A DNA stretch of 64,000 nucleotides from Candidatus Yanofskybacteria bacterium RIFCSPHIGHO2_01_FULL_44_17 (GCA_001794195.1 MGJI01000006.1:2650-66649); one strand, 5' to 3'; shown: positions 7,561 through 24,397, counted from the stretch's first letter. Notes: generated by a model not told the origin, from the letters alone. Numbers and translations are program-made.

Positions 7561-9159
7561 TTATTTCGTTGTCAGTTGGAATTTTTTAATTAGTTCGAAA
7601 TTTTCGGGGGTTCTTTTTATGAAGATTGCCGTGGAGGCGTCGAGGTAGATTAGCGGCCAGTCAGGGTTTTGGGAAATATGGGACAAGAAGGTTCTGGCCC
7701 AGGGGGTCATATCTGTGTGGCCGAAAAAGATGTAGTTGATGCCATACTTCTCGGATAGCTGCTTCCATACTGCCGGGTTCTCCTGCATAGGTTTGTAGAT
7801 TTTTTCAAAAAATTCGATGCTATACGCCTCCGGCCGGCCGTCTACGAACACCTTGAAATCGGGACTTGTCCCGTTAGAAGTAGGGTCTCTTAGAGACCCG
7901 CTAGTTCTAACGGGATACAATTTCCATATTAGGAAACTGCCGATGTCAAAATTATTAAATACCGGCCCGTGAATTTTGTTTTCTTTGACAAAATTTAAAG
8001 CTGAACCTGCGCCTACTGGAATTGCCAGGCCGAATCTGTTTGGCCTGCCTGCCCAGCGCTGGAAACCGTTATTGACCGCACTCTTGATTAGGAGTAATTC
8101 TGCCAAGATTAAAATTGAGAGCAGACAGGCCTGAACGCCTCGTCTGGAAAGGATTCGTTTGGGTTGACAAGAGGCGAAGTTGAGAGTGACTATTGGTAGA
8201 AAAACCAGAGCATAGGGGCCGAAATTCCTGATCATTTTGCCGGCGAGGATTGTGAAAACGCTGGCCGCCAGAAACTCAAACACGATCTTTTTGTGGTTTT
8301 TGAAGGCAATAACAAAACTAATGATAAGCACAATCAGCGACAACTCAAATAGATAGATGTCACGCAGCTGGACGCCGTAATCAGTCAGGAAAAATATGTT
8401 CTGGTTTTCAACGATGCTGTAGCCGTAATCGCGTAAGATATTAATCGGTGCCAGCGCTCCCTTGATGAAATTGGGATTGATTAGGGTAGCGACGCAGGTG
8501 GCGATGAATATTTTTAGAACTAATCGGGCTTGTTCTTTTTGGTAGGCAAGGCGGTCAATCAGGAAAAATAAAAGAAGAGCCGGTCCCAGTGCGAAATAAA
8601 TATGCATATTGGTCCAAAATATCTGTAAGATCGGCAGGGCATAGAGCCATTTGTGCTCGTTGGAGTATTTAGCGCGCAAAATAGCAAATAAAAAGTAAGA
8701 CAAGAATAAATAACTGAATATCTCCGGCCTGACGTCGGTCCGACTTGAAAAAATAAACAGTGCCGGAATACCGGCCAGCAAAAATGGCCAACCGCCGGCA
8801 GTTTTCGGCAAGGATTTAAAAATCAAAAAGAAGGCCGCGACTATGACTCCGGCCTTGAAAACTATTAGGCCCTTAAGACCGATTAGGCCATTTAGCAAAT
8901 AAAAAACCACCTCGCTCAGCCAGTGGTGGTTTATGAAGGGATGGGCCGGTTCGGTAAAAGAAAAAAGATTGGTCTTATAGACGTTTTTTGTTTCCCAAAT
9001 AATCTGGCCCGATTTCAAATGCCGTCCGATGTCTTGGTTTATCGAGTTTAGGCTATGGACCGATAAAGCGGCGACCAGGACAAAAAATAGAATTATGGCA
9101 ATCCAGCGAAGAATCCTCATGTTTGATATTGTATCAGAAATCAGCCCACCCCTCATCAT
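7561..9159 (-). CDS. polytopic membrane protein, probable GT-C-type (ArnT/PMT-like) glycosyltransferase with C-terminal soluble domain
   Basis: About 12 predicted TM helices followed by a ~150-aa hydrophilic C-terminal domain. This architecture is typical of GT-C enzymes. Confidence 0.45.
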   Translation of the reverse strand: MMRGGLISDTISNMRILRWIAIILFFVLVAALSVHSLNSINQDIGRHLKSGQIIWETKNVYKTNLFSFTEPAHPFINHHWLSEVVFYLLNGLIGLKGLIVFKAGVIVAAFFLIFKSLPKTAGGWPFLLAGIPALFIFSSRTDVRPEIFSYLFLSYFLFAILRAKYSNEHKWLYALPILQIFWTNMHIYFALGPALLLFFLIDRLAYQKEQARLVLKIFIATCVATLINPNFIKGALAPINILRDYGYSIVENQNIFFLTDYGVQLRDIYLFELSLIVLIISFVIAFKNHKKIVFEFLAASVFTILAGKMIRNFGPYALVFLPIVTLNFASCQPKRILSRRGVQACLLSILILAELLLIKSAVNNGFQRWAGRPNRFGLAIPVGAGSALNFVKENKIHGPVFNNFDIGSFLIWKLYPVRTSGSLRDPTSNGTSPDFKVFVDGRPEAYSIEFFEKIYKPMQENPAVWKQLSEKYGINYIFFGHTDMTPWARTFLSHISQNPDWPLIYLDASTAIFIKRTPENFELIKKFQLTTK

Positions 9160-9529
9160 TTCTCGAGAACACTGCTTGTCTCCTAATTTTTCTTACAACA
9201 TCATGTCTTCCTACAAATTATGCAAAACTCGCTAAATTGTCGGACACAGACCAGTTCTCCGTTTGCCGCTTGAAAACTTCAGCTAAAGCTTCGTTTTCTG
9301 CGCGTTTTCCGACTAGTCTTAGTGTTACCCGACAATTCTTAACGCTCGCTTTGCTAATTTATCAGTCGACAGATGAATGACGAAAAATTAGAAGACTCGC
9401 TTTGTCTAAACTCTCGAAATGACGAGGAGTTTGTCTTCTCAATATCTTAGAGCTTATCTTGACCCTAGCTTTCTAATTTTTGAGGAATGCGACGGTCTAA
9501 AACCCTTATTTTACAATGACTTTTGAGGG

Positions 9530-9558
9530 TTGACTTTGCTATGATAATTTGATATAAT
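9530..9558 (+). promoter_or_regulatory. sigma70 consensus promoter (TTGACT - 17 nt - TATAAT)
   Basis: TTGACT at 9530-9535, a 17-nt spacer, and TATAAT at 9553-9558, directly upstream of a ~200-nt hairpin-rich leader and the GC-rich ORF at 9773. Confidence 0.55.
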
Positions 9559-9772
9559 TAAGAGTGTAAATTAGCTCTTTTATTTAAGATACTTGCGATT
9601 GATGAATGAAGATGAAGAAATACTGAGGGTACCAAGCCGAATGTAAGTCAGTCATAGCCAAAAGCCCTTGATTTGCCAAATGGCAGAGGAGATCTTCTGG
9701 CTATGACTGCGACTACGAAGCGGTCTAGCAGAAGCAGCGTGCCCATCAAGGGCGAGCTGCAAAGAGGATATC

Positions 9773-10435
9773 ATGAATGAATATTGGAACCTAGGTGTTG
9801 GGCCAGCTCAGAAGTTTGAGAAAGCCCTGAACCGAAACGGTTGTACCCCAGCCGAACTGGACACTTTGTCCAGTGGCAGTCTTCTTAGCCAAGTCCGGCG
9901 AGTCATCGCTGGGCAAGCCAAGATCGTCCCAGTCGAACCGCAGATGGACCGCTGGGTTACCATCAACTCCACGACCATCGCCGTTAACCTCGGCGCCACG
10001 CCGAGACTACCTTTCGATGGAGCCCGAGTCGAGAGCCACATCGGTAATGGCTGGGCCATCGTCGAGAGGCGGGCGGACGGATTGTATGTGAATGACCACA
10101 AAGTCATCCTGCATCTGTCCAAGCGTCAAATAGTCGGTAGTAAGTTCGTCCGAGGCTACGAACTCCGCAGAGAGCTGACGGGCAAGCCCGTCCTCAACGC
10201 GAACATTCTGGATGCCCTCTACGACAATCCCCACCTCATTCCCGAGGACTGGAAGAAAGATGAGCATGACAACATCCGCTACATCTTCTTCTGGGGCAGC
10301 ATCTATTGCGATGTTGACGGCCGCCTGTGTGTCCGCGCCCTCTGCTTCCGCAGCAGTGCGTGGGGCCGGAGCTGCAACTGGCTCGTCGACGACTGGCTCG
10401 GCCCCGACCTGGCGGCTTCGCTCGCAAGTGTCTGA
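9773..10435 (+). CDS. hypothetical protein encoded in a GC-rich (foreign-composition) island
   Basis: Complete 220-aa ORF with strong G/C third-codon-position bias (gtc atc ctg cat ctg tcc ... ccc gtc ctc aac gcg) in an otherwise AT-rich genome. Spurious ORFs appear in several other frames because of the GC content. No domain recognised. Confidence 0.6.
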   Translation: MNEYWNLGVGPAQKFEKALNRNGCTPAELDTLSSGSLLSQVRRVIAGQAKIVPVEPQMDRWVTINSTTIAVNLGATPRLPFDGARVESHIGNGWAIVERRADGLYVNDHKVILHLSKRQIVGSKFVRGYELRRELTGKPVLNANILDALYDNPHLIPEDWKKDEHDNIRYIFFWGSIYCDVDGRLCVRALCFRSSAWGRSCNWLVDDWLGPDLAASLASV

Positions 10436-10493
10436 ACTTGGGGCTTAGCCCCTCTGATCTTTTTGACCCTTGGGATTTTATCCTTGGGGTCCT

Positions 10494-10525
10494 GCCCGCA
10501 CGGTAACGTGCGGGCGTTTCTTTTT
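10494..10525 (+). terminator. Rho-independent terminator
   Basis: GCCCGCACG-GTAA-CGTGCGGGC stem-loop followed by GTTTCTTTTT. A smaller GGGGCT-T-AGCCCC hairpin plus T-run lies at 10440-10465. Confidence 0.7.
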
Positions 10526-10586
10526 CAAAAATTCATGATAAGATCACCCTGGTAGTAGGAATATGTATACAAATTGGAAAATAAAA

Positions 10587-11843
10587 TTAGAGAATAGCTT
10601 CAATTTGTTCAAGCATGCGGCGGAGGATGAATTTGTGGAGGACGGTTTGGTGGGCTTGGATGCCGAGTTCGCGGCGGAGAGTTTCGTCTCCGACGAGTTT
10701 GTTTATGGCTTTAGCAAGAGCTTGTGGATTGGCCGGCGGCACGATGAGGCCGTTCTTGCCCAGCACCACTTCGCCTGGTGGCGAAGTGGTGCTGGGTGAA
10801 CCATTTTCAATTACTTCAGGATTGGCGCCGACAGCGGTGACTACAACGGGTAGTTTGGCAGACATCGCTTCAAGTACCGCCCAGGGAAAGCCTTCTTTAA
10901 CTGACGGCAAGACAAAAATATCGAAAGCCTTGAGGTATCTATAGGCATCAACGATCTTTCCTGCAAGAAAAATTTTATTTTCTAATTTTAGATTATTAAT
11001 TCTAGATTCTAGATTCTGTCTTTCTGGACCATCGCCGATTATAACTAGGTTGTAGGTGTTGGGCTTTAGGTTATAGGTTAAAATCCGGAAAGCGTTGATT
11101 AAATACCCTAAACCTTTGGTTGGGTAAAAGTTGGCGATGGTGCCGATAAGCAGACCGGAGTGCAAAAAGTTTGCGTGCTTCTGTGACGATGGCAAGTTCT
11201 CATATAGGCGGATTTTAGCTTCGTCTTTTTCTAAAAACTCAAGTTTGTACGGGTCTATGCCGTTGTGAACTAGAATTATCTTTTCGCGCGGTTTGATGCC
11301 GAATTTAATTGCTTGGTCGTAATCGTGCTTATTGTTGACAATAATGTAGTCTTTCCACGATGCGCTGATTTTCTCTAACCAGCGGTAAGCCAGTCGTTTC
11401 CACCATGGCCATGGGTCGTTGAATGTCCAGCCGCCGATTCTATAGATAGTTTTTAGGTTGTAGGTTGTGGGTTGTAGTAGTTTGGCGGCGAGAGAGCCGA
11501 TAAAGCCGGCCTTGGAGCTGTTTAGAAATAGCGTATCGGGCTCGAAATCCTTAATGAGTCTTTTGATTTCAAAAACAGCGGTGATGTCACTGAAAACATT
11601 GGGGTTCCGACGCAAGTGTTTGGCGGTCAGATATTTTATACCCGCGGGCAGTATAGCCGCGATTTCCTTGTTACCGTCGGTTCCACCGGCCACGGCCAGT
11701 TCAAAACGATTGGGATCAAGATGGCCTGCCAACTGTGCCAGAAACATCTGAGCTCCGCCCAATTCCGACTGGGTAATTATAAATAAAACCCTCTTTTTTG
11801 GGTTGTTGGTCTGCTGGTTTATGTGGTTGCTTATGCTATCCAT
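10587..11843 (-). CDS. GT4-family glycosyltransferase carrying an in-frame 46-bp palindromic insertion
   Basis: GT-B/GT4 C-terminal motif EGFPWAVLEAMSAKLPVVVTAVGANPEVIENG...GLIVPP. The NG/GLIV core is interrupted by SPSTTSPPGEVVLGK, which is encoded by a perfect hairpin. Confidence 0.8.
   Translation of the reverse strand: MDSISNHINQQTNNPKKRVLFIITQSELGGAQMFLAQLAGHLDPNRFELAVAGGTDGNKEIAAILPAGIKYLTAKHLRRNPNVFSDITAVFEIKRLIKDFEPDTLFLNSSKAGFIGSLAAKLLQPTTYNLKTIYRIGGWTFNDPWPWWKRLAYRWLEKISASWKDYIIVNNKHDYDQAIKFGIKPREKIILVHNGIDPYKLEFLEKDEAKIRLYENLPSSQKHANFLHSGLLIGTIANFYPTKGLGYLINAFRILTYNLKPNTYNLVIIGDGPERQNLESRINNLKLENKIFLAGKIVDAYRYLKAFDIFVLPSVKEGFPWAVLEAMSAKLPVVVTAVGANPEVIENGSPSTTSPPGEVVLGKNGLIVPPANPQALAKAINKLVGDETLRRELGIQAHQTVLHKFILRRMLEQIEAIL
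10755..10800 (-). repeat. 46-bp palindromic insertion element (copy A) inside the GT4 coding sequence
   Basis: On the coding strand: TTCACCCAGCACCACTTCGCCACCAGGCGAAGTGGTGCTGGGCAAG. The stem is 17 bp with a 4-nt loop. It is flanked by AATGG / AACGG. Confidence 0.75.
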
Positions 11844-11866
11844 TTATGGCAATATAATATAGTAAA

Positions 11867-13045
11867 ATGGAGGGAAAAGCAACACAAAGAATTTTGGTAT
11901 TTGCGACTAATTATCTGCCCCATATTGGAGGAGCAGAATTGGCATTCCATGAAGTTGCGATACGTATTCCCGAAGTAACTTTTGACCTCATCACCTCTCG
12001 CCTTAAAGACCCGTTCGATCCCAAGAAACTTTTGCCTTCCGAGGAAAAGTTCAAAAACGTGAACATTTACAGAGTAGGTTCGGGTTTTAATCTGGCCAAG
12101 CTAGTGCTACCTAAAAGCTTGTATCCCATAGCCGCCTACAACAAGGCCACGGAACTATACAAAAAATTCGGCCCGTATAAAAAGATTTATGCCCTGCAGG
12201 CTTCGCAGGGCGGCGGAGCGGCCTGGTTGTTTAAGATTTTTAATCCGGAGGTCACGCTCATATTAAACTTACAGGAAGGCAAGGATTTTAAAAAACAAGG
12301 GTCGCTGATTAATTTTTTCCGGAGCTTAATTATAAAAAAAGCAGACGCTATTGTTGCCATAAGTAGTTATCTTAAGGAGTACGCCAAAAAAATTAACAAG
12401 AAATCCAAAATTCACGTAATACCCAACGGAGTAGATATCGGACACTTTTCAACCGAGTACAGCTATGGGGAGCTATCGGGATTGTCCGATCAGCTTGGGA
12501 TTAAGCCAGGCGATAAGGTTATTGTCAGCGTCTCACGCCTGGTTCCCAAAAATGGCATCGATATTTTGGTAGAGGCGTTTGCCGAGGTATGTAAACTTAA
12601 AAATAAAAGTTATAAACTTCTGTTACTTGGCGATGGGCCGGAAAAGGAAAATCTCAAATCTCAAATCGCAAGCCTCAAACTTGAAAATCAGGTTATTTTT
12701 GCGGGGACCGTTGGGCATGCCGAGCTACCTAAATATTTGAAGATCTCTGATGTTTTTGTCAGATCGTCTCGATCGGAGGGTTTGGGTAGTTCATTCTTGG
12801 AAGCTATGTCGGCCGGTGTGCCGGTAATAGGAACCAGGGTTGGTGGAATCCCAGACTTTCTAAAAGATCGCGAAACGGGTCTTTTTTGCAAAACTGATAA
12901 TCCTGTTGATTTGTCCAAGCAAATCTCTCGTATTTTAACTGACGAAGAATTGCGTGCTAAGGTGATTAAGAATGGGCGCAGTCTGGTTGTCGAAAATTAT
13001 GATTGGGACAAGATAACCAAAAGCTTCAAAGAGCTTTATTTATGA
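11867..13045 (+). CDS. GT4-family glycosyltransferase
   Basis: GT4 signature RSSRSEGLGSSFLEAMSAGVPVIGTRVGGIPDFLKDRETGLF. Divergently arranged with the gene at 10587. Confidence 0.8.
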   Translation: MEGKATQRILVFATNYLPHIGGAELAFHEVAIRIPEVTFDLITSRLKDPFDPKKLLPSEEKFKNVNIYRVGSGFNLAKLVLPKSLYPIAAYNKATELYKKFGPYKKIYALQASQGGGAAWLFKIFNPEVTLILNLQEGKDFKKQGSLINFFRSLIIKKADAIVAISSYLKEYAKKINKKSKIHVIPNGVDIGHFSTEYSYGELSGLSDQLGIKPGDKVIVSVSRLVPKNGIDILVEAFAEVCKLKNKSYKLLLLGDGPEKENLKSQIASLKLENQVIFAGTVGHAELPKYLKISDVFVRSSRSEGLGSSFLEAMSAGVPVIGTRVGGIPDFLKDRETGLFCKTDNPVDLSKQISRILTDEELRAKVIKNGRSLVVENYDWDKITKSFKELYL

Positions 13046-14106
13046 CCTCTATTTTAATAGCCGAATACACAAGGCGTTCAAACGAAATAGGCAGGCCGTC
13101 TTACGGCCAGATTTTGTCGCAGGGACTTTCCAGCGACTTTAAAATCTATTCTTCCGGTAGTTTTTTAAAGATATTAAGCTTGGCGGGCGAGGTAGATACT
13201 ATTTTTGCTACCACCCCGGTGGGCTCAGGTTATGCTGCCTATTTGGCGGCAAAGTTGCGGAAGAAAAGTTTTTTGTTAAGAGTTGACGACGATTATGCCT
13301 GGAGATCAGCAATTGAGAGCGGCAAGACATATCTTTTGGCTAGTGACTTCCAGAAATTTCCAAAAAAAGGGCATGCCTCTGGCACATTCAAACGACAGGC
13401 TCGGATTTGTGCGCAGGCAGATGTTATTATCGTGCCGTCTAAATTTATGTCAGAAATCGTAAGCGGCTGGGGGGTGATGGCGGAGAAAATAAAAATAATA
13501 GCCGACCCTATTAATTACGGGCTGACCGATATAAGCAAAGAGGAGGCAAGGAAAAAAATTGGTATTCCCGGTAATTTGCTGATATCTGTCGGGCCGCTTG
13601 TTCCATGGAAGGGCTTCCGCATGTTGGTTAAACTGATGCCTCAGCTCGCCGCAATCAACCAGTTTTTTCGTCTGGTTATAGTGGGTGATGGGCCGGAACT
13701 AAAAATTCTCAAGCCGATGATCAAAAATCTAGGTCTTGATAAAAAGATTTATTTGATGGGCAGAAAGAGCGAAGAAGAATTGGCTCTGCTTTTGGCGGCT
13801 TCAGACGTGTTTATTTTGAACAGCGGTCACGAGGCTTTCCCCAGCGAAACGATAAGGGCTATGATGGCTGGTCTGCCGGTTATCACAACGGCCGTCGGCG
13901 CAAATCCGGAGGTTATTGAACAAGGGGAGAACGGATTTATGATTAAGTACAATGATGAATTCAATTTAGTAGAAGCCATTAAAACGGTATGGCAGACTCC
14001 GCTACTGCGGGAGAGGTTTATTGAAGAAGGAAAGAAGACGGCGCAGCGGTTTAGTCTGGAAAAAACGATGGAAGAAATTAAAAAAGTTATAGGTTATAAG
14101 CCATAA
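13042..14106 (+). CDS. GT4-family glycosyltransferase (start placed at the ATGA overlap; ORF-track start 13003 is probably spurious)
   Basis: Motif ...AMMAGLPVITTAVGANPEVIEQGENGFMIKY. It shares TAVGANPEVIE with the 10587 gene but lacks the palindromic insert. Confidence 0.75.
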   Translation: MTSILIAEYTRRSNEIGRPSYGQILSQGLSSDFKIYSSGSFLKILSLAGEVDTIFATTPVGSGYAAYLAAKLRKKSFLLRVDDDYAWRSAIESGKTYLLASDFQKFPKKGHASGTFKRQARICAQADVIIVPSKFMSEIVSGWGVMAEKIKIIADPINYGLTDISKEEARKKIGIPGNLLISVGPLVPWKGFRMLVKLMPQLAAINQFFRLVIVGDGPELKILKPMIKNLGLDKKIYLMGRKSEEELALLLAASDVFILNSGHEAFPSETIRAMMAGLPVITTAVGANPEVIEQGENGFMIKYNDEFNLVEAIKTVWQTPLLRERFIEEGKKTAQRFSLEKTMEEIKKVIGYKP

Positions 14107-14111
14107 GCAAT

Positions 14112-15287
14112 ATGCGACTTCTAATGATATCAGGTGCGGGCGCGAGTTCTTTGGTCCAAGGCAAGCGGGGCGCGTTTTATAGTACCCTTGAAGAGTTCCA
14201 TAAGTATTGGGAGCGGATTGATGTAATATGCCCCGCTGTCACAACTATCAACTACCAACTACCAACGACCAACTACTTTGGCAATGTTTTTATCCATCCG
14301 TCGCCACGGCCGTTAATAATGCAGCCATTGTGGATTTTGAAGAAAGGCCGCGAATTGTACCGTGAACACAAATTTGACTTAATAACCGTCCACGAGTTCC
14401 CCCCGTTTTATAACGGAATCGGCGCGAGGTTACTTTGGAATAAAATCCATGTTCCGTATGTTTTGGAAATTCATCATGTTCCCGGATACCCTAAGGCTGC
14501 AGGGCTTAAGGAGCGGCTGTATAAAATTGCGATGCAACGGTTCATAAAATACGATGTTGCCAAGGCAAGGGCTGTGCGTGTGGTCAATCAGCATCAGGTT
14601 CCTGATTTTTTGACCAATGCTGGGGTTCCGGCCGAAAAAATAAAATATATCCCCTCGGCCTATATTGATCTAGAGACATTTAGGCCGATGCCAGAAGTTG
14701 AGAAGAAATATGATTTAGTTTTTGCGGCCAGGCTTGAAAAAAATAAAGGCGTGGGCTTATTATTGGATGCGGTTGCCAGCCTTAAGATCCAAGTCCCCAG
14801 TCTTAACCTACTGATTATCGGCGATGGTCCGGAAAGACAGAATTTGGAAGAAAGAATAGAGGCCCTAGGGTTAGAAAACAATGTCATTTTGACCGGCTGG
14901 TTGCCAACAGTCGGTGATGTGGCGCGAGCCTATAATAGCGCCAGGATTTTTATCAACCCCTCTTTAAATGAGGGCGGACCCAGAGTGGCGCTGGAAGCTA
15001 TGGCTTGTGGTTTGCCCGTAATTACAACGCCAGTAGGGTTGATGATTGATGTAATAAAAAACGGTTCACCCAGCACCACTTTGCAAGATAGCAAAGTGGT
15101 GCTGGGCAAGAACGGCCTGATTACCAATTGGGAGCCGGAAGATATGGCCAATAAAATCTTGTATTTGCTTAATGACAGACAGCTGCAAGTACGGTTTTCC
15201 GCTGCCAGCTTAGAATTGGTCAAACAATTTGAAAAACAGTCAGTAATTAGAAACTACGCTCTAAAATTACGCGGCCCCGTAACCTAA
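14112..15287 (+). CDS. GT4-family glycosyltransferase carrying an in-frame 46-bp palindromic insertion
   Basis: NEGGPRVALEAMACGLPVITTPVGLMIDVIKNG-[SPSTTLQDSKVVLGK]-NGLITN. Imperfect AACTACC heptamer repeats at 14243-14277 encode TINYQLPTTNY. Confidence 0.75.
   Translation: MRLLMISGAGASSLVQGKRGAFYSTLEEFHKYWERIDVICPAVTTINYQLPTTNYFGNVFIHPSPRPLIMQPLWILKKGRELYREHKFDLITVHEFPPFYNGIGARLLWNKIHVPYVLEIHHVPGYPKAAGLKERLYKIAMQRFIKYDVAKARAVRVVNQHQVPDFLTNAGVPAEKIKYIPSAYIDLETFRPMPEVEKKYDLVFAARLEKNKGVGLLLDAVASLKIQVPSLNLLIIGDGPERQNLEERIEALGLENNVILTGWLPTVGDVARAYNSARIFINPSLNEGGPRVALEAMACGLPVITTPVGLMIDVIKNGSPSTTLQDSKVVLGKNGLITNWEPEDMANKILYLLNDRQLQVRFSAASLELVKQFEKQSVIRNYALKLRGPVT
15065..15110 (+). repeat. 46-bp palindromic insertion element (copy B) inside the GT4 coding sequence
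   Basis: TTCACCCAGCACCACTTTGCAAGATAGCAAAGTGGTGCTGGGCAAG. The 16-bp stem is CCCAGCACCACTTTGC/GCAAAGTGGTGCTGGG with loop AAGATA. It is flanked by an AACGG direct repeat (15060-15064 and 15111-15115). Confidence 0.75.
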
Positions 15288-15435
15288 AAGTTATCCACAG
15301 AAAAGTGGGCATAGTCAAGTCAGCGGAGGTATAATTAATACATAATATATACCATCTGCTAATACTACGGTCTTTTGGACAGTAGCACTTCTTTACGTAT
15401 AAGACGATTTTGCCAGACGGTAGGTTTTAATCAAA

Positions 15436-17118
15436 ATGGGAACAAGTTTTATTTTGCCTAAGGCACGGTCAGTTTTTATAATTTGGTCTGCGCTTGTTAT
15501 TATCGCTTTGATGGCGGTATTTTTTATGTTTTCAAATAAGGCAAGTGCGGCAGATGCCGGTGAATTCGTATTTTTCAGGATTGATAGCGAAATCGATACT
15601 TTGATAGCTGATAAAGGTACGTTGTCTCTTAGATTTTCATGCGGTGGCGCTACGGCGGCCGCTTACGTTGAAGATGGTACGGCTTCTGAAAGTACTAATT
15701 CAGCAGATGGTATTATAAAACTTGCATCGGCTTCTAAAGAAATGACAGATGCCAGTTGTACTGTTTTGGGCAGTCAATGGGATGGTAGTAAAACTATTCG
15801 CGCCTCGATTTCTATAGATGGTTGGGTGGCAAGAACTTGGGAGGTCGTTCTTCTGGCATCTACTACTGCCGAATTTGTCACCAGAGCAAGTGTGGACTAT
15901 ACCATTTTGGTTAATGGCGTAGATGATGAGTTAGGTACTGCTATCACGCTTGATGGTACTTCGGCCTCGGCTTCTTATAGCGGAACGGTTGCTTCACAGT
16001 CATACAGCAATTACAGTGGCTCATACAAGAAATATATTGCCGGTTCAACCAGTAGTGGTACGGTTAAGGGTGGTGCCAACGGCTATGTTAACAGAACCTC
16101 CGCCGCTCTGACGATTTCCCCCACGGCTTCACAGTCCGTTGACTTCGGCGTAGAAACAGACAGCGGTTTGGACGAAAGCGGATTGGACTTCGGCCACAAA
16201 GTAAGAGTGTATGAATCCGGAGGAAGTTTTGCGGATAACAAATTTACCACTGGTGCAGTAACAGCCGGAGATAGTTTTAGCACGACTTGTACAAATAATA
16301 GTGACGGAAACTGGTATTGTCCCGTGCCTATTGCCAATACAGAAACATCCGCGAAATTTATTTTGACAGGATTTGTAACTTCGACGGGAACATATACCGA
16401 CCGAACTGCTGGATCAAGCGCTTCCGATAGCATTGATATTACACCAGTTAGGACTACCCCTAGCGGTGGTGGTGGAACACCCACGCCCACGCCGACCCCG
16501 ACTCCTACCCCAAGTCCTACGCCTGGCGTATCTGTTTCGCCAACCCCAACTCCAGGAGTTTCACCAACGCCCACGCCAACTGTTGGAGTAAAACTATATC
16601 GCAAGGTAAGCGACCCCAAGGTTTATGTTTTAGGCGCAGATGGAATGTTGACCTGGGTTAGGACGTTGGAAGAGTTTAATGCCGCTGGCTATAAGTGGTC
16701 TGATGTCCAGTTAATATCCGGTCCGGAATTCGCAAAATTTAAACAAGCCTCAGTTTCTGGTGCCAAATTGTTGCGTCAGGAAAATAACCCTAAGGTCTAT
16801 GCCCAAGGTAATGATGGAATTTTCCGATGGGTGAAAACTGCACAGGAATTTAATGGCAAGGGATATAAGTGGGAAGAGATCCAACTTGTTTCTGCGGGGG
16901 AACTTGCTGGATACGTGATTGGCGGCAGAATCAAGGTGGTTGGCGGAATTGCTTTCTTGCGTGTTCGTGAAAATCCAAGCACTAAGAGTAAGATTCTTGG
17001 GCAGGTCCTTACCGGACAGGAGTTTGATTTTTCCGATCTTGAGAACGGTTGGTACAGAATTAGAAAAGACGGCAAAGATTGGGGATGGGTGTTCGCGGGA
17101 TACGCCAACGAGATCTAA
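15436..17118 (+). CDS. cell-surface protein: signal anchor, Thr/Ser-rich region, (PT)n linker, two ~55-aa repeats and a C-terminal bacterial SH3 (SH3b) domain
   Basis: TPTPTPTPTPTPSPTPGVSVSPTPTPGVSPTPTPT linker. Duplicated KVYxxGxDGxxxWVxTxxEFNxxGYKW motif. SH3_3-like C-terminus GWYRIRKDGKDWGWVFAGY. Confidence 0.6.
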   Translation: MGTSFILPKARSVFIIWSALVIIALMAVFFMFSNKASAADAGEFVFFRIDSEIDTLIADKGTLSLRFSCGGATAAAYVEDGTASESTNSADGIIKLASASKEMTDASCTVLGSQWDGSKTIRASISIDGWVARTWEVVLLASTTAEFVTRASVDYTILVNGVDDELGTAITLDGTSASASYSGTVASQSYSNYSGSYKKYIAGSTSSGTVKGGANGYVNRTSAALTISPTASQSVDFGVETDSGLDESGLDFGHKVRVYESGGSFADNKFTTGAVTAGDSFSTTCTNNSDGNWYCPVPIANTETSAKFILTGFVTSTGTYTDRTAGSSASDSIDITPVRTTPSGGGGTPTPTPTPTPTPSPTPGVSVSPTPTPGVSPTPTPTVGVKLYRKVSDPKVYVLGADGMLTWVRTLEEFNAAGYKWSDVQLISGPEFAKFKQASVSGAKLLRQENNPKVYAQGNDGIFRWVKTAQEFNGKGYKWEEIQLVSAGELAGYVIGGRIKVVGGIAFLRVRENPSTKSKILGQVLTGQEFDFSDLENGWYRIRKDGKDWGWVFAGYANEI

Positions 17119-17134
17119 AATTTAGGATAAAACT

Positions 17135-17168
17135 AAAACCCCCTTCGACAAACTCAGGGGGTTTTATG
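17135..17168 (+). terminator. Rho-independent terminator
   Basis: AAAACCCCC-TTCGACAAACTCA-GGGGGTTTT followed by ATGTT. Confidence 0.7.
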
Positions 17169-17204
17169 TTGAATAGGCTAAATTTTTCATATATTGTATG
17201 ATAA

Positions 17205-18266
17205 ATGCCTAATTTACTCATAATCACCCAAAAAGTTGATTCAAATGACGATGTCCTCGGCTTTTTTCACGAGTGGATTCGCGAATTTTCCAAGAAATGC
17301 GGCAAGGTGACTGTTATTTGCCTGAAGCTTGGCCAGTACGATTTGCCGTCAAATGTTAAGGTTATGTCCCTTGGCAAAGAGAGAGGGTTGGGCAAGCTTC
17401 GGTATTTGTTAAATTTTTACAAATATATTTGGCAGGAACGCAAGAATTATGATGCTGTTTTTGCGCATATGAATCCGCAATATATTCCCTTGGGATGGCC
17501 GGTATGGAAACTGCTAGGCAAAAAAATGTCGCTCTGGTATGCACATGGGCACGTGCCGCCGATGCTTAAAATTGCAGATCACCTGACGGACATTGCTTTT
17601 GCGTCTACGCCAGAGGGTTACCGCTTGCCCAGCAAGAAACTAAAAATCGTGGGGCAGGGGATTGATGTTAATAAATTTAGGCCCGCAGAAGGTAAGGCGA
17701 TAAAAGAGTTTTTTAAAATTGTTTCGGTCGGCAGGATTTCGCCATCAAAGGACTACGAAACGCTGATAGGGGCTATCGAATTATTATCGCCTAGCGGTAA
17801 ATTTAAAATAGAAATTGCTGGTAGTCCGGCCAATCCCAGCGACAAAGATTATTTAGAAAATTTAAAACGACTGGTCAGTGAAAAAGCGCTTAGCGTCATA
17901 GTCGAGTTCATCGGTCCGATTGCCAACAAAAATCTTCCGCCATTTTTACAATCTGCGGACCTGTTCGTGAACATGGGCCATACGGGCAGTTTGGATAAGG
18001 CTAATCTCGAGGCTATGGCTTGCGGTTTGCCGCTCCTAACCTGTAATGAGGCTTACGAAAACATTCTGGGAGAGTACAAAAGTATGCTCATGTACCCCAA
18101 GAGGGACGTCCGGTCTTTATCAGAAAAAATCGGTATGATTATTAATTTAAACCAACAAGAAAGAGAAAAAATAAGTCACTATTTGAGACAGATTGTCGTT
18201 CGAGATCATAATTTGGAAGAATTGGTAAACAAAATTAGCGCGATTTTATTTAGCCAAAACCAATGA
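17205..18266 (+). CDS. GT-B glycosyltransferase (GT4-like)
   Basis: C-terminal motif GSLDKANLEAMACGLPLLTCNEAYENILGE. 4-bp ATGA overlap with the next gene. Confidence 0.65.
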   Translation: MPNLLIITQKVDSNDDVLGFFHEWIREFSKKCGKVTVICLKLGQYDLPSNVKVMSLGKERGLGKLRYLLNFYKYIWQERKNYDAVFAHMNPQYIPLGWPVWKLLGKKMSLWYAHGHVPPMLKIADHLTDIAFASTPEGYRLPSKKLKIVGQGIDVNKFRPAEGKAIKEFFKIVSVGRISPSKDYETLIGAIELLSPSGKFKIEIAGSPANPSDKDYLENLKRLVSEKALSVIVEFIGPIANKNLPPFLQSADLFVNMGHTGSLDKANLEAMACGLPLLTCNEAYENILGEYKSMLMYPKRDVRSLSEKIGMIINLNQQEREKISHYLRQIVVRDHNLEELVNKISAILFSQNQ

Positions 18267-19459
18267 ATTTAAAGCCCATAGTTATAACTGGCCACCCCTA
18301 TGCATTTCCTTATTATTTTAAAGTTTTTGAATACGCAGAAAATAAAGATGACTTGATCTTTGCCTTGCCCAAGCTGTGGTTAGCTAAAAAGGGCAAGGTT
18401 AAGATTAAACTTGAGCAAAGGCCAGGCCTTAAAATTTACGGTCTGCACGCCGTATCTTATGGTGGTCGCGGTATTGCGGGCCTATTTAAGGGCTGGCTAC
18501 CGGGCATGATTTTTTTGTTACCGTATTTAAAAATTAAATATAAAAGTAAAGTTTTGTACTCCTGCTCGGAGTCCTACCTTTTGACCACCTTATGTAACGG
18601 CTTAGCGGCTAAGCTCTGCGGGATGAAGTATATTTTTTTTACATGGCAGAATGTTGAGCCGCAAAAATATATGAGCGGGCTAAAATTAAAATTGTATACT
18701 GCTCTGATACGAATGAATTTGCGCCTTGCAGATGGCGTGATCTGCGGCAATAAAAAAGCTGAGTTGATTATAAAAAAACTTAATCATAATAAGGCAACCA
18801 TGATTTGCCCGATAAGCGGTGTTGATATTGAAAAATTCCGTCCCAATATCCAAGGTGACTGGCGAGAAAAACTAAACATAAAACCCGAAGAAAAACTAAT
18901 TTTATTTTATGGTGCCCTGGATAAGCGCAAGGGACTGAACATTTTGATAGAAGCTATCAAAATGTTAATTTTCAATTTTCAATTTTCAATTTTCAAACTA
19001 GTGATTGTTGGCACGGGGCCAGAAGAAGAAAGTTTAAAGTTGCAAGTTAAAAGTTTAAAGTTGGAAGCTAGAGTAACTTTTCTTGATTGGCTGCCAAATG
19101 ATCAATTACCAGCGCTACTGAATGCCGCTGACGTCTTTGTTTATCCAAGCGTGCCATCTGGAGGATGGGAGGAACAATTTGGCTATGCAATGGCCGAAGC
19201 CAGCGCTTGCGGTGTGCCTGTGGTGGCAACGAGGACGGGTTCTATTGATGAAGTTGTTGTGGACGGCGAATCCGGCCTGTTGGTTGAGCCGAATAACCCA
19301 GAGCAATTGGCTGAGGCGATTTCAAGGACTTTGAATAACCCAAGCACGGCCAAGCAGATGGGTGAATCGGGTAGGGAATATATAGTCAAAACCCTCGCCC
19401 ATCGTATAGTCGTCAGAAAACTTATAAGTTTTCTGACGACTATCGGCGAGAGCAATTAA
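18263..19459 (+). CDS. GT4-family glycosyltransferase containing an (AATTTTC)4 heptanucleotide tandem repeat
   Basis: EEQFGYAMAEASACGVPVVATRTGSIDEVVVDGESGLLVEPNNPEQL. The repeat at 18967-18994 encodes FNFQFSIF. Confidence 0.8.
   Translation: MNLKPIVITGHPYAFPYYFKVFEYAENKDDLIFALPKLWLAKKGKVKIKLEQRPGLKIYGLHAVSYGGRGIAGLFKGWLPGMIFLLPYLKIKYKSKVLYSCSESYLLTTLCNGLAAKLCGMKYIFFTWQNVEPQKYMSGLKLKLYTALIRMNLRLADGVICGNKKAELIIKKLNHNKATMICPISGVDIEKFRPNIQGDWREKLNIKPEEKLILFYGALDKRKGLNILIEAIKMLIFNFQFSIFKLVIVGTGPEEESLKLQVKSLKLEARVTFLDWLPNDQLPALLNAADVFVYPSVPSGGWEEQFGYAMAEASACGVPVVATRTGSIDEVVVDGESGLLVEPNNPEQLAEAISRTLNNPSTAKQMGESGREYIVKTLAHRIVVRKLISFLTTIGESN
18967..18994 (+). repeat. perfect heptanucleotide tandem repeat (AATTTTC)x4 inside a coding sequence
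   Basis: Direct reading of AATTTTCAATTTTCAATTTTCAATTTTC. Confidence 0.8.
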
Positions 19460-19479
19460 AAACAGCACGGAGTGCTGTT

Positions 19480-20283
19480 CTAATTTGGATAGCCGGGCAT
19501 GATCGTCGCGCGAAGATCTTGTGCTGTTTTGCCGATTTCTGCGAGCATGCCATTAATTCGACGCTGTTTACTTTCAAGCTTTTTTCTTTGCAGTTCTGTC
19601 CGTTCAGACTGGACTTCAATTTTTCCTTGTGCTGATACTTCGAGTACGGCTAGTACCGGCCGTTTATGATATTCCCGCATCTTTAACAGAGGTATGAATT
19701 CACCAACGCCGGCGTTACTTTCTCCGTAATGATCGGCACATCTTGGTTTTATGTCGTGCGGATCAAAGCCACCAACTTCAGTAAGCGCCTTAATATCCCA
19801 CAGAGCGAGCGTGTTCATTATACTGCCTTCGCGAACAAATTCAGCTATTTCTGGTAGAGCAACTCCAACCGCAAGAGCGCCACTTCTTACTGCCGCACGC
19901 ATCTTTTTTAGCAGGATGGCATCAACATACGAAGCTGCTTCCCAAGAGAGAATCAATGAATGGGTAAGGCCGCGGGCGTATTGAAGAGCAATGCCATCGT
20001 TGAGCACAGAGACGAACAGATCCCCGTCTATTGTTTCGTGAGCCCGCGTATTAGAAAAAATACGTAACCCATTGATCATCTCACACAAAGCATTGTAGGT
20101 TCGTCCGCAATCGCTAGCCGGGTTGTCTAGGTTGGCCCAAACGCCAATCTGTACGTCATGAATGCCGGCATTGTTGAGTTTTTGTATCGCACTGGCCAAG
20201 CCTTTTAATAAGACATCAATTCCTTCTGTTTTGGGAGAGTAAGCTCTCAACAGGCCACCTATCTTTATGCCACTTGAATTCAT
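19480..20283 (-). CDS. hypothetical protein (possible TIM-barrel/glycosidase-like fold; not recognised)
   Basis: 267-aa ORF with no confident motif. Confidence 0.4.
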   Translation of the reverse strand: MNSSGIKIGGLLRAYSPKTEGIDVLLKGLASAIQKLNNAGIHDVQIGVWANLDNPASDCGRTYNALCEMINGLRIFSNTRAHETIDGDLFVSVLNDGIALQYARGLTHSLILSWEAASYVDAILLKKMRAAVRSGALAVGVALPEIAEFVREGSIMNTLALWDIKALTEVGGFDPHDIKPRCADHYGESNAGVGEFIPLLKMREYHKRPVLAVLEVSAQGKIEVQSERTELQRKKLESKQRRINGMLAEIGKTAQDLRATIMPGYPN

Positions 20284-21432: not shown

Positions 21433-22215
21433 TTATTTCAAGGTTCAACCTTGAAATGGTTTTGAAGGGTTAATAAGGCGTCGGTTGCTCTGGTTTAAAT
21501 TCAAGCCAGCCTACGATTTCATTTATGAAATCAGCTTGTTTTTCAAAGTAGCGTGGGAATTGTCCAGGTGTCAAAATGGCCGATTCCGACCTTTTTATTT
21601 TTAAGTAATCTGGGAAGCTAGAATGCCGATAATTTTTTAAATGTTCTTTTGCCCGGTTCATATTTTTCACACCTTTATTTTTCCAATCCGGCTCAATGTG
21701 TGAAACCGGATTAAGGTGAATATATGAGTATAAATATTTCAAATAATTATCGCTATCTACATGCCGAGCTCGAAAGCGACCTTCAAATAAACTTCCTGAT
21801 CTTTGGTTTCGAATGTTAAAATACATAGTATATGCGGTCGTCAGTTTTTGCATAAATTGACTAACCCCGCCGCCTATGAGTTCGCGAACAAGTAAATGAA
21901 AATGGCTACCCATTAAACAATAGGCGCCAATGGCTGCTAGAGCTTTACCGCGCTCAATTTTATAAATAGGTATGCCTGAAAATATCTCGCGCACCGTGCT
22001 TAAATGTACTGCTTCGGTGCCGTTGCATAAATATAGAAGTTTTTGAAAACGGTTCCTGTCATTAGAATTAGTAAAAACGAGCCGTTTTTCAACGCCCCGG
22101 TTAAACACGTGGTAATATTCTCCTTCAGAAAAAGAAAACGGTCGAGACATGAGTTTATGACATGTTAACTCAATATTATCCCCATTTCAAGGTTGAACCT
22201 TGAAATGGGGATACA
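21433..22215 (-). mobile_element. IS200/IS605-family (HUH Y1 transposase) insertion element with subterminal hairpins
   Basis: Near-identical palindromes flank the transposase gene: ATTTCAAGGTTCAACCTTGAAAT (21435-21457) and ATCCCCATTTCAAGGTTGAACCTTGAAATGGGGAT (22178-22212). Confidence 0.7.
21470..22150 (-). CDS. Y1 HUH transposase, IS200-like / REP-associated tyrosine transposase-like
   Basis: YHVFNRGVEKRLVF; HUH motif in YCLMGSHFHLLV; C-terminal RFRARHVDSDNYLKYLYSYIHLNPV (catalytic Tyr region). Confidence 0.8.
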   Translation of the reverse strand: MSRPFSFSEGEYYHVFNRGVEKRLVFTNSNDRNRFQKLLYLCNGTEAVHLSTVREIFSGIPIYKIERGKALAAIGAYCLMGSHFHLLVRELIGGGVSQFMQKLTTAYTMYFNIRNQRSGSLFEGRFRARHVDSDNYLKYLYSYIHLNPVSHIEPDWKNKGVKNMNRAKEHLKNYRHSSFPDYLKIKRSESAILTPGQFPRYFEKQADFINEIVGWLEFKPEQPTPY

Positions 22216-22290
22216 ACCACTGCTTCTGGCAAAATTGGTAACCGTGTTGAAGCCGCGGAAGAGGTGCTGGAAATGGCAAAATTAGTTTAA
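22213..22290 (+). pseudogene. diverged duplicate fragment of the 3' end of the FAD-oxidoreductase gene
   Basis: Encodes TTTASGKIGNRVEAAEEVLEMAKLV*, compared with the genuine C-terminus SKTATIFSGKIGNCVEAADEVLALVKEI* at 21350-21432. It lies immediately outside the IS hairpin. Confidence 0.5.
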
Positions 22291-23216
22291 ATCTTAGAGA
22301 GTACCCTTACGACCCCAAGGCCAAAGCCGCCATCGGTGTGCGGTTTTTTGTTTCTGGTTATGCATTTGATAAATTCGGTGCATTCGATTTCAAGGGGAGT
22401 TTTTGTGCTTTGGTAAATCAGCTTGAAGGCGGCGCTTTTTTTGTCTAGCTTGAGTAGCCTGTCATTTTCCCAGAGGTAGACATTTTTATTCGTGGCCAGA
22501 GTTATGGTTTTGTTTTTGAAATTAGAAACCCTATTTATGTATATTGTGCAGGAGCGACTATTTTTAAAACCAAGACGTATATAAATTATGTCCGAATCAG
22601 TCACCATGCCGCTATTTTCAATTGTCTTAATGCTTGTGGGCTTGTCCAGCACCAGTTTATTGGGCGCTAAACTGGTGCTGGATGAACCAAACAGATCCAG
22701 TGCCATGGCAACGTCATGTGAGGCGAGGTTAAAAACCAGCTCCTCATTGAATGTGCCAAGCTTATTCCAGACGAATGAGGCATGTTTAAACGGCTCAACG
22801 TCGTTGAGCCGTTTAATTTTGGCCCAAACCGGGTGATAGGAGAAAATATGGCCGACGAATAAAATACGCTTTTTTTTTGCGGCTAGCCTAACTAGTTCTT
22901 GGGCCTGCTTGACATTGTCTGTAATTGGTTTTTCTACAAAAACATGTTTGCCGGCGAGCAGGGCTTTTTTGGCTAGTTCGTAATGCGCTTTTATCGGTGT
23001 AGCGATAATAACGGCGTCAATAGATTGATCATGCAGTATTTGGTCAAAAGATGCGGCGGTTTTGATCCCCGGGTAGTTTTTTTTGAGCCATTTTTTAGTT
23101 TCTGGGCTACCTTTATAAAAACACCACTCCACGAGGGCTACTCTATCAAACTCCCTCAATAAATTCTTGCCCCATCGGCCGATGCCGACTACGGCTAAAC
23201 ATTTTTTACTGGGCAT
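22287..23216 (-). CDS. Gfo/Idh/MocA-family NAD(P)-dependent oxidoreductase (start likely at MPSKK..., ORF-track start 23255)
   Basis: CLAVVGIGRWGKNLLREF...AVIIATPIKAHYELAKKALLAGKHVFVEKP. Confidence 0.75.
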   Translation of the reverse strand: MPSKKCLAVVGIGRWGKNLLREFDRVALVEWCFYKGSPETKKWLKKNYPGIKTAASFDQILHDQSIDAVIIATPIKAHYELAKKALLAGKHVFVEKPITDNVKQAQELVRLAAKKKRILFVGHIFSYHPVWAKIKRLNDVEPFKHASFVWNKLGTFNEELVFNLASHDVAMALDLFGSSSTSLAPNKLVLDKPTSIKTIENSGMVTDSDIIYIRLGFKNSRSCTIYINRVSNFKNKTITLATNKNVYLWENDRLLKLDKKSAAFKLIYQSTKTPLEIECTEFIKCITRNKKPHTDGGFGLGVVRVLSKI

Positions 23217-23239
23217 GGTAACATCAACGATATAGTAAA

Positions 23240-24397
23240 ATGTCAAAAAAATCAATAAAAATCATATTGGCTACGGGCATATTCTATCCCGACGTCGGCG
23301 GGCCGGCGATTCATGTGCGCAAAATCGCCGAGGCTTTGACGCAAAACGGTTTTCGGCCGGTGGTCATCGCTTATGGTGACTACGACGGACAAGAGAATTT
23401 CCCGTTTCGGGTTATTAGGATTTCAAACAAGCTCAACCCGATTTTAAGGCGTGCAAAATATACACTGACCGTATTGCGAGAATCATTGGCAGCCAAGGCA
23501 CTTTATGCCTTTAATCTCGCAACAGCCGGACTGCCCGTTTTCATTGCCGGCAAGTTATTTAGTAAAAAAATCCTAATTCGAGTTCCCGGCGATCCGATCT
23601 GGGAAAGGATAGTTGAAAACGGTAGGCGTTCTGTGTCTTTTGTTAATTATTATAAACAAGGGCTTCACACAGTCGACCGGCCGTGGCTCTTCAGGGTCAT
23701 AAAATTTGTATTATCAAGGTTCGACCACGTCGTGTTTTACAGTCCGTTTCTGTCAGAAATTTATAAAAAATATTATGCTATACCGGCAAACAAGGTGAGC
23801 ATTATTCTGAATCCGGTTTCGCGTCGGGAGATGCTACCGGTAGAGATAGCCAGTGAGCCGACGGTTCTCTTTGCCGGACGCTTTGTGGCTTACAAAAATC
23901 TTGAGCTGGTTATTAGGGTCTTTGATCGTGTACGGCGTAAGATTGGCAGCGGTAAATTAATCCTAATGGGGGATGGCCCAGACAGGGAAAAGCTGGAACG
24001 GCTAGCGAGCGGGATGTCGTCGGCGTCCAATATTAGGATAACTAGCAAGGTTTACCAAGAAAAACTCTTTGAACACGTTTGTTCATCAACGCTTGGAATT
24101 GGTCCCGCTCTTACCGAGTTCAACCCTAATTTTATTCTCGAGTGCCTTTCTTTTGGCAAACCGGTTTTGCTTAGCCGTGAAAACGGTCTTTCGGTCAAAC
24201 TGCCGGAAGAGTTTCTGTTTGATCCATCAGATGAAAATGAACTCGAGGCTAAATTAGTTAAATTTTTCGATGAAGATTTTTACAAATCTGCCCAGGGAAA
24301 AGTTAGTCGCATGGACATGAATCAAACATGGGATAAGGTGACAGGCGGACATTTAGAATTATTACATAAAATTACCAGTGGCTATGCGCATGTTTAA
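23240..24397 (+). CDS. GT-B glycosyltransferase (GT4-like)
   Basis: IKIILATGIFYPDVGGPAIHVRKIAEAL at the N-terminus. C-terminal ILECLSFGKPVLLSRENG. Confidence 0.6.
   Translation: MSKKSIKIILATGIFYPDVGGPAIHVRKIAEALTQNGFRPVVIAYGDYDGQENFPFRVIRISNKLNPILRRAKYTLTVLRESLAAKALYAFNLATAGLPVFIAGKLFSKKILIRVPGDPIWERIVENGRRSVSFVNYYKQGLHTVDRPWLFRVIKFVLSRFDHVVFYSPFLSEIYKKYYAIPANKVSIILNPVSRREMLPVEIASEPTVLFAGRFVAYKNLELVIRVFDRVRRKIGSGKLILMGDGPDREKLERLASGMSSASNIRITSKVYQEKLFEHVCSSTLGIGPALTEFNPNFILECLSFGKPVLLSRENGLSVKLPEEFLFDPSDENELEAKLVKFFDEDFYKSAQGKVSRMDMNQTWDKVTGGHLELLHKITSGYAHV

Follow-up and report, generated by a model that had tools for sequence, protein, structure and literature searches.

Hairpin units in three genes of the window

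The stretch of DNA analysed here, referred to as the window, comprises 64,000 nucleotides of Candidatus Yanofskybacteria bacterium RIFCSPHIGHO2_01_FULL_44_17 (GCA_001794195.1, MGJI01000006.1:2650-66649), an ultra-small bacterium from groundwater. Three of its genes, two for divergent glycosyltransferases of the GT4 type and one for an oxidoreductase of the Gfo/Idh/MocA family, each contain a 42-nt unit consisting of the tetranucleotide TTCA and a 38-nt hairpin (Table 1). The hairpins in the two GT4 genes were retrieved with the pattern CCCAGCACCAC-N(4-20)-GTGGTGCTGGG, which matched the window exactly twice, at copies 1 and 2, and gave no match in 100 dinucleotide-preserving shuffles. Overall, the two GT4 genes are 28% identical in protein and 44% in nucleotide sequence, whereas around the hairpin 20 of 21 and 23 of 23 nucleotides are the same, the identity being near-complete over the arms and 12 nt downstream. 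The original prediction, made from the sequence of the window, that hairpin elements occupy the same codon of two divergent GT4 genes and are more conserved in DNA than the surrounding genes, is thus borne out.

On the gene strand, copy 1 reads TTCA followed by CCCAGCACCACTTCGCC-ACCA-GGCGAAGTGGTGCTGGG (peptide SPSTTSPPGEVVLG), with a perfect stem of 17 bp and a loop of 4 nt; copy 2 reads TTCA followed by CCCAGCACCACTTTGC-AAGATA-GCAAAGTGGTGCTGGG (peptide SPSTTLQDSKVVLG), with a perfect stem of 16 bp and a loop of 6 nt. The inner stems of the two copies differ by a compensatory, that is paired, change and the loops differ altogether, as had been described. The hairpins are perfect, as predicted, but the palindrome of 46 bp that had been proposed is palindromic over 38 nt only, the remainder being the non-palindromic TTCA and CAAG. 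The third copy, overlooked in the original prediction, lies in frame in the oxidoreductase gene and reads TTCA followed by TCCAGCACCAGTTTA-GCGCCCAA-TAAACTGGTGCTGGA, with a centre of 8 nt (peptide SSSTSLAPNKLVLD).

The predicted folding energy as single-stranded DNA was −24.6 kcal/mol for copy 1 (z = −8.9) and −21.0 kcal/mol for copy 2 (z = −8.1). Perfect stems of at least 10 bp numbered 11 in the window, the hairpin of copy 3 among them, versus 0–3 in the shuffles. Degenerate copies with up to four mismatches were sought throughout the window and none was found besides the three, and a search of positions 9000–24500 against Rfam (E ≤ 1) gave no match. No strand bias relative to replication was evident in the window: the GC skew is positive over its whole length, and two units lie on the minus and one on the plus strand.

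Table 1. Location of the hairpin units, their host genes and related features. Positions are counted from the first nucleotide of the window or, for the fusion genes, within the locus named.
Feature	Position	Strand	Remarks
GT4 glycosyltransferase gene 1	10587..11843	minus	Pfam Glycos_transf_1; host of copy 1
Copy 1	10759..10800 (hairpin 10759-10796)	minus	42-nt unit in GT4 gene 1
GT4 paralog	13003..14106	plus	internal control; empty site EVIEQGENGFMI, uninterrupted EQGENGFMI
GT4 glycosyltransferase gene 2	14112..15287	plus	Pfam Glycos_transf_1; host of copy 2
Copy 2	15065..15106 (hairpin 15069-15106)	plus	42-nt unit in GT4 gene 2
IS200-like Y1 transposase gene (Y1_Tnp)	21470..22150	minus	hairpins 21435-21457 and 22177-22213
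Gfo/Idh/MocA-family oxidoreductase gene	22287..23255	minus	assigned by Pfam; host of copy 3
Copy 3	22645..22686 (hairpin 22645-22682)	minus	42-nt unit in the oxidoreductase gene
GIY-YIG-prepilin fusion genes	L088 1510-1752; L132; L182 838-1074; L191; L193 6326-; L194 3523-3762; L213; L235		in other genomes

Presence and absence of the unit in orthologous genes

Homologs of the three host proteins were aligned (120 listed for GT4 gene 1, 120 for GT4 gene 2 and 59 for the oxidoreductase); homologs are designated by P numbers and loci in other genomes by L numbers. The 14-residue segment encoded by the unit is present in four of the 120 gene 1 homologs listed (P0001, P0002, P0003 and P0006) and is a gap in 113, including P0004 (72% identity), the empty form reading IIEN-xKNGL; two others contain remnants of three residues and one distant homolog a decayed insert. 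For gene 2, the segment occurs in the protein of the window and is missing from all 119 other homologs listed. In the oxidoreductase it is found in four of the 59 and is missing from P0244 (72% identity) and P0246, the closest empty homologs reading LFG-KPTSIK. The closest GT4 paralog in the window is uninterrupted, as had been noted. Because orthologs differ by its presence or absence, the segment is shown to be an inserted copy of a dispersed palindromic element and not ancestral GT4 sequence. The claim of an inserted rather than ancestral element is upheld further by the copy in the unrelated oxidoreductase gene and by more than 150 copies elsewhere (see below).

The boundaries of the unit were read from DNA. 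Empty oxidoreductase genes have TTC GGC AAG CCC and filled ones TTC GG[T TCA TCCAGC...GCTGGA]C AAG CCC, and the filled GT4 genes have GG[TTCA CCCAGC...GCTGGG]C AAG. From the filled and empty boundaries it follows that the inserted unit consists of TTCA and the 38-nt hairpin and that unrelated genes have received it at GG^CAAG; the GT4 and oxidoreductase genes agree in both the TTCA prefix and the target hexamer, and the hairpins are related, not identical. An insert of 17 residues between NG and GLIx, as first proposed, therefore has to be revised to 42 nt (14 residues) between G and KNG. The AAYGG elements on either side, which had been taken for a target-site duplication, are native: the empty GT4 ortholog L127 (GAG AAT GAA AAA AAC GGC) keeps both of them and they are therefore not a duplication.

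Copies have been gained repeatedly and also lost. L128 retains a 9-nt remnant, consistent with an internal deletion of 33 nt, and in a homolog of 51% identity (L253) the corresponding GT4 codon is occupied by another, decayed palindrome; thus, the GT4 site is a recurrent target from which copies disappear as well. Between the four filled gene 1 orthologs, which diverge by about 30% in protein sequence, no synonymous site of the outer stem differs and the inner stem shows paired changes only. The gene 1 orthologs are related in a star-like manner (64–75% identity) and the filled ones form no cluster or clade, which would fit one old gain with losses as well as several gains; the identity of the outer stems may reflect recent insertions rather than constraint. 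Three records (L001-L003) are 99.99–100% identical to the window and carry no information on polymorphism between strains.

Tolerance of the inserted peptide

In the C-terminal Rossmann domain of the GT4 gene 1 protein, the insert occupies the turn that connects ...PEVIENG with KNGLIV. The length of the unit is divisible by three, no frame contains a stop codon and the site is a surface turn; the unit therefore survives as a loop of 14 residues. In an AlphaFold2 model of the gene 1 protein, the mean confidence (pLDDT) was 90.4, dropping to 59 in the block of residues 351–360 and to below 50 at residues 350–353. The insert corresponds to residues 348–361 and spans this latter dip, so that it falls in a low-confidence loop of a confidently predicted fold; the check on the GT4 model that had been suggested fits a tolerated surface loop.

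A family of hairpins in Patescibacteria

One genome per species was scanned with the pattern CCAGCACCA-N(16-20)-TGGTGCTGG. Among the matches listed, most were chance matches with stems of 9–11 bp from GC-rich taxa, and at least about 26 were long perfect stems of the type CCAGCACCACTTT with arms CCAGCACCACTT(T). Of these some 26, at least 22 come from records that bear the name Patescibacteria, Parcubacteria, Saccharibacteria, Jorgensen-, Komeili-, Magasanikbacteria or Paceibacterota. When 24 bases were fixed, the stricter pattern matched at least 120 loci in metagenomes. The family amounts to at least 152 distinct copies of 28–42 nt, with stems of 12–19 bp, in public genomes and metagenomes. 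The arms (12–19 nt, consensus CCAGCACCACTTTT / AAAAGTGGTGCTGG) surround a short variable centre, and the inner stems are highly variable yet paired. By the similarity of their sequences, the window hairpins are shown to be members of this family, which is spread over many lineages of Patescibacteria (bacteria of the candidate phyla radiation, CPR).

Many loci have a motif of 4–6 nt (TTTAC, TTCAC, TTGAC or TAAAT) on both sides of the hairpin. Direct repeats with at least five of six bases matching flank 53 of 150 copies, compared to about 0.5% expected by chance, and are almost always GTTTAC, GTAAAC, GTTGAC, GTCAAC, GTTCAC or ATAAAT. Most copies lie outside long open reading frames (ORFs). Clean in-frame insertions of 42 nt were also seen in a UvrD-like helicase gene (L122) and a histidine-phosphatase-like gene (L063), with TTTAC or ATAAA duplicated. 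A left flank of GGACTATA(T/C)C-TTCAY is common to L139, L146, L183 and L184, the right flanks of which differ, and hints at another recurrent target or a longer conserved unit.

Typical copies were also present in three records titled Gammaproteobacteria or Spirochaetes (L029, L113 and L112). The labels or the binning of these records are probably wrong; in NCBI, Daviesbacteria is the name given to the GIY-YIG protein from L029. Viral contigs scanned with the family pattern gave no match, and phage origin or carriage was rejected on this ground. A search of the literature for palindromic or in-frame repeats in CPR bacteria, and for Patescibacteria together with RAYT (REP-associated tyrosine transposase, REP being repetitive extragenic palindrome), found nothing relevant.

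Association with pilin leaders and a GIY-YIG nuclease

The genes adjoining family copies were clustered (1152 ORFs). Type IV pilins were the commonest neighbours (29 loci), followed by PilT/B (18) and PilC (14). No transposase cluster was found among the 1152 ORFs and the only gene found between arms was that of a GIY-YIG nuclease; a MITE (miniature inverted-repeat transposable element) of the DDE type was rejected for these reasons. About 30 copies lie in a prepilin leader, where the 3' arm and its flank encode KSGAG|FT(L)IE. The family resides mainly at the G|FT cleavage motif, in the 5' part of type IV pilin genes that codes for the leader, and some leaders contain two or three nested copies (e.g. 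L109). The window itself contains no pilin genes. At a GFT-type site in L101 (positions 1-100) a different palindromic element flanked by GGGTTTACCCTG was seen, and the leader site may attract more than one hairpin family.

Upstream of many of the leader copies lies a gene for a single-domain GIY-YIG protein of 81–82 residues. The match of these ORFs to PF01541 spans almost the whole domain (E = 4e-16 to 2e-18), and a profile search gave 19 hits in 17 family loci, establishing the association of the hairpins with the nuclease in other genomes. The start codon is located 2–8 nt past a left arm in seven loci. Arms flank the gene on both sides in at least eight loci: both are at most 50 nt away in at least seven (L029, L132, L138/L224, L182, L188 and L194) and at most about 100 nt away in L191. 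The order left arm, GIY-YIG gene, right arm is seen in L088 and L182, with the right arm 13–16 nt past the domain, so that the nuclease gene sits in the loop of the hairpin; both arms of L088 have a matching deletion of 1 nt. In L188, L191 and L194 complete hairpins are present on both flanks.

Eight loci contain a single ORF in which GIY-YIG (PF01541) is joined to a prepilin N_methyl domain (PF07963), and public gene callers likewise give one protein (Table 1). The linker of these fusions is encoded by the hairpin and ends in KSGAG|FT; judged from this motif, prepilin peptidase would cleave the fusion and release both parts. The CPR nuclease gave generic GIY-YIG hits in NCBIfam, all below cut-off, and its best match in the PDB was the UPF0213 protein 1ZG2, with a weak E value of 0.017, followed by SLX1.

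Other palindromes and genes near the element

The oxidoreductase gene contains a second perfect palindrome (22786-22816; 15 + 1 + 15), which has added no length: five codons that read QIASK or QLVRK in the orthologs are replaced by RLNDV, and in this way the left arm has become the reverse complement to native GAG CCG TTT AAA. From its sequence, this looks like a template-switch event.

A further GT4 gene of the window (18263..19459) has a loopless perfect palindrome of 38 bp in its last 18 codons (19406-19443) and a second hairpin (18938-18966; 13 + 3 + 13) in a region that is not insertion-like. The large membrane-protein-like ORF 7561..9159 contains an in-frame imperfect palindrome (7869-7915; 22-nt arms, 82% complementary). 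In L128, a double hairpin ACTTAGTGGTT[G/C]AACCACTAAGT, repeated twice, is located at 665-712 inside the GT4 gene that adjoins the remnant-bearing ortholog. Reverse-transcriptase (RVT_1) genes of about 325–354 residues lie directly downstream of gene 1 orthologs in L124 (4252-5316) and L127 (2009-2986), a position taken in the window by an unannotated ORF of 220 residues (9773..10435).

The Y1 transposase gene of the window is bracketed by hairpins of its own, ATTTCAAGGTT[C/G]AACCTTGAAAT, the two loops of which are complementary. With these hairpins (21435-22213) it looks like a REP/RAYT-like unit, unrelated in sequence to the 42-nt element. A Y1 homolog (L125, 2978..3688) lies beside a GT4 ortholog and is bracketed by ATCTCTGGT..ACCAGAGAT.

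Proposed origin and mobility of the hairpin units

We consider it probable, with some reserve, that the hairpins in the GT4 genes are solo copies, devoid of an ORF, of a palindromic repeat that is found throughout the Patescibacteria and forms a nuclease/hairpin element similar to that of the Ssn nucleases (SsnA with the NTS/dRS3 repeat in Neisseria, and related nucleases with Ssn-related motifs (SRM) in other bacteria; Chenal et al., Nat Commun 2025, PMC11893778). A GIY-YIG nuclease, which should then be present in this genome, would recognise the hairpin as single-stranded DNA and mobilise it by cutting at ^TTYA upstream of hairpins. The segment between two cuts (TTYA plus hairpin, 42 nt in the in-frame cases) would be re-joined by host functions at another nick, as would have happened at GG^CAAG in the two GT4 genes and the oxidoreductase gene. 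Survival would be limited to insertions of a length divisible by three in loops, leaders or spacers, and the arms would be kept perfect by recency, by recognition by the nuclease and possibly by template switching (cf. 22786-22816). Two ^TTYA sites of the pilin-type arrangement enclose exactly this 42-nt unit, and its start 4 nt upstream of the 38-nt hairpin appears, indirectly, compatible with a cut at that point.

Several observations weigh against this reading. The window copies have no flanking direct repeat, unlike about half of the family, and their right flank is CAAG, not TTCA; therefore, the insertion chemistry may differ or be imprecise. GIY-YIG nucleases are hydrolytic and, to our knowledge, have no strand-transfer activity, so that integration would need host ligation or repair. 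The GIY-YIG profile found no gene in the 64-kb window. The placement of the CPR nuclease in the Ssn clade (cd10448) is putative, the best solved relative being as distant as stated above, and the hairpin differs in sequence from the Ssn-related motif that has been published. A common preference for a site in pilin leaders might be all that links the nuclease gene and the hairpins. Finally, gene 2 agrees with gene 1 in the K codon and the following 12 nt, as would fit gene conversion.

Tentatively, the arms may be seen as the ends of an undescribed mobile cassette of Patescibacteria, in which a GIY-YIG gene of about 250 bp occupies the hairpin loop. Such a cassette would insert at the G|FT codons of type IV prepilin genes and be translated as an N-terminal fusion to the pilin, as in the eight fusion ORFs. 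Cleavage by prepilin peptidase would then free the nuclease and leave the pilin intact, so that the gene would be parasitised without being broken and without splicing. The ORF-less 42-nt units, cut out between two nuclease sites, would hop as single-stranded DNA to sites such as GG^CAAG. We regard this whole sequence of steps, taken together, as possible rather than probable.

It is also conceivable, though clearly less probable than the nuclease reading, that a single true insertion in gene 1 was pasted into gene 2 by ectopic recombination across the (E/D)VI.NG / KNGL motif. Identity does extend beyond the hairpin (GC AAG AAC GGC CT downstream and 14 of 18 nt upstream), and the residue after the insert is K in gene 2, as in gene 1, where gene 2 orthologs mostly have E, D or Q. 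The gene 2 insert is unique to this lineage, the gene 1 insert is present in three other orthologs, and the inner stem of gene 2 (TTTGC) matches that of the gene 1 orthologs L124-L126. However, the unrelated oxidoreductase gene, where conversion from a GT4 gene is impossible, has the same unit at the identical target hexamer GG^CAAG, and the palindrome at the same codon of the distant homolog L253 makes the site a recurrent target. Moreover, the loops ACCA and AAGATA are wholly different, and the flanking identity covers conserved residues; by our estimate, the synonymous positions would match by chance only about once in 24.

Mobilisation of single-stranded hairpins by a Y1 (HUH) transposase such as that at 21470..22150, in the manner of REP/RAYT or IS200/IS605 (IS, insertion sequence), with insertion 3' of a tetranucleotide and no duplication, is in our judgement unlikely, and weaker than the nuclease reading. 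The Y1 gene is 0.5 kb from copy 3, and the homolog in L125 adjoins a filled GT4 ortholog. Read on the opposite strand, all three window copies have the form CTTG|hairpin-TGAA|CC, with a constant 5' tetranucleotide, a constant element end and no duplication; this layout matches the insertion rule of IS608-type elements. Both Y1 genes, though, are bracketed by different hairpins (ATTTCAAGGTT.. in the window, ATCTCTGGT.. in L125), Y1 homologs occur in one of about 144 family loci versus 17 for GIY-YIG, and the GTAG or CGTC head of classical REPs is missing.

We have little confidence in a hairpin maintained by selection, either for a function of the mRNA (pausing, stability or processing) or as a 14-residue loop of the enzyme. 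In its favour, the window copies share one frame and orientation, and the outer stems of the four divergent gene 1 orthologs are identical at synonymous sites, with paired changes further in. The filled orthologs are not a clade, however, and the identity may equally stem from recent independent insertions; most orthologs have no insert and remnants show its loss. The hairpin sequence occurs in unrelated genes and pilin leaders as well and is mostly found outside long ORFs; the loop residues vary freely, the AlphaFold2 loop is disordered and Rfam gave no match. Nothing thus favours the regulatory mRNA hairpin (pausing or attenuation) that had been offered as an option. Formation of each palindrome in place by template switching, one arm being copied from the other, has an apparent precedent at 22786-22816, where five codons were replaced at constant length by an arm complementary to native downstream sequence, and in the excess of perfect stems over shuffles, but is most improbable as the origin of the window copies and contradicted by the 42 nt that were added to the GT4 and oxidoreductase genes and by arms common to more than 150 loci in many lineages; it may serve only to maintain the arms.

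Overall, this is a real feature and not an ancestral one, and the idea behind the original prediction holds with corrections. It is most aptly classed with the nuclease-associated hairpin repeats; the anatomy of its insertion is unusually clear, and its tie to prepilin leaders was unexpected. If the nuclease reading is correct, the pairing of Ssn-type nucleases with hairpins extends to the Patescibacteria, a large and poorly understood part of bacterial diversity. To the published work our data add direct sequence evidence of insertion and loss of the hairpin, together with a definition of the unit (4 nt and a hairpin of 38 nt) and of its target hexamer. Enzymes can be remodelled in frame by units of only 42 bp, with consequences for the calling of genes and the alignment of protein families in these genomes. 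The pilin leaders, in which copies concentrate, and the nuclease-prepilin fusions point to a connection, open to test, of single-stranded DNA nucleases with the machinery for pili and competence that these episymbionts rely on. In practical terms, a conserved hairpin with a tiny nuclease would provide a candidate for a site-specific single-stranded DNA nuclease of new specificity.

Comparison with known systems

Rickettsia palindromic elements, to which the hairpins had been likened, are about 100–150 bp in length. The analogy is fair in that palindromes are inserted in frame in protein genes and tolerated as surface peptide segments; the unit described here has 42 bp and is unrelated in sequence and in host range (Patescibacteria), and the closest system is that of hairpins with a GIY-YIG (Ssn-type) nuclease. 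The 42-nt unit is also smaller than the MITEs known to us. With bacterial MITEs (e.g. Correia, Nezha and Coxiella MITEs; PMC5896051) the family has in common that the terminal inverted repeats enclose little or nothing, that many copies are flanked by short direct repeats, and that non-autonomous copies outnumber the gene-carrying form. It differs in that no DDE transposase relative was found among the neighbouring ORFs and the window copies have no target duplication.

REP/RAYT and IS200/IS605 systems likewise have short (20–40 nt) hairpin repeats, recognised as single-stranded DNA as those described here would be, an enzyme gene bracketed by the repeats, and possible insertion beside a short specific sequence without a classical duplication. 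The gene associated here, in contrast, is GIY-YIG and not Y1/HUH, the Y1 genes carrying other hairpins. In REPs the 5' foot of the hairpin is marked by a conserved tetranucleotide, GTAG or CGTC (PMC3733652), whereas the flanks here are TTTAC, TTCAC, TTGAC or TAAAT. Classical REPs are extragenic and species-specific; the arms described here are common to a superphylum.

The differences from the Ssn systems are in sequence and placement. The arms CCAGCACCACTTTT / AAAAGTGGTGCTGG with their TTYAC-type flanks are unrelated to the NTS/SRM consensus CGTCATTCCC..., which has a CGTC head and an ATTCCC..GGGAAT core (CGTCATTCCCGCG..GCGGGAATC) with no resemblance to the hairpins here. The family is found repeatedly in frame in ORFs and in pilin leaders, whereas only 2% of NTS copies are inside genes, and Patescibacteria are unmentioned in that work (PMC11893778). 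An IS-like layout was remarked upon by its authors, insertion events not being shown (PMC11893778); the insertion polymorphism, the defined target hexamer and the nuclease-prepilin fusions seen here are unreported there. Diverse specificities have, on the other hand, been reported within the Ssn family, and SsnA of Neisseria, a protein of about 94 residues, binds its repeat only when the DNA is single-stranded, the cut being made a few nucleotides upstream (PMC11893778). The likeness lies in a single-domain GIY-YIG protein of about 80–95 residues (here in the related loci, not in the window), in a nuclease gene bracketed by hairpin repeats of 20–50 nt that are also dispersed (here units of 28–42 nt), and in a non-palindromic flank that orients the repeat. 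Both systems are tied to type IV pili and the biology of DNA uptake, and the carriers are symbiotic with small genomes. From this analogy, the hairpins and the GIY-YIG nuclease of the Patescibacteria probably work in the way of an Ssn nuclease and its repeat, the nuclease being probably a divergent member of the Ssn family.

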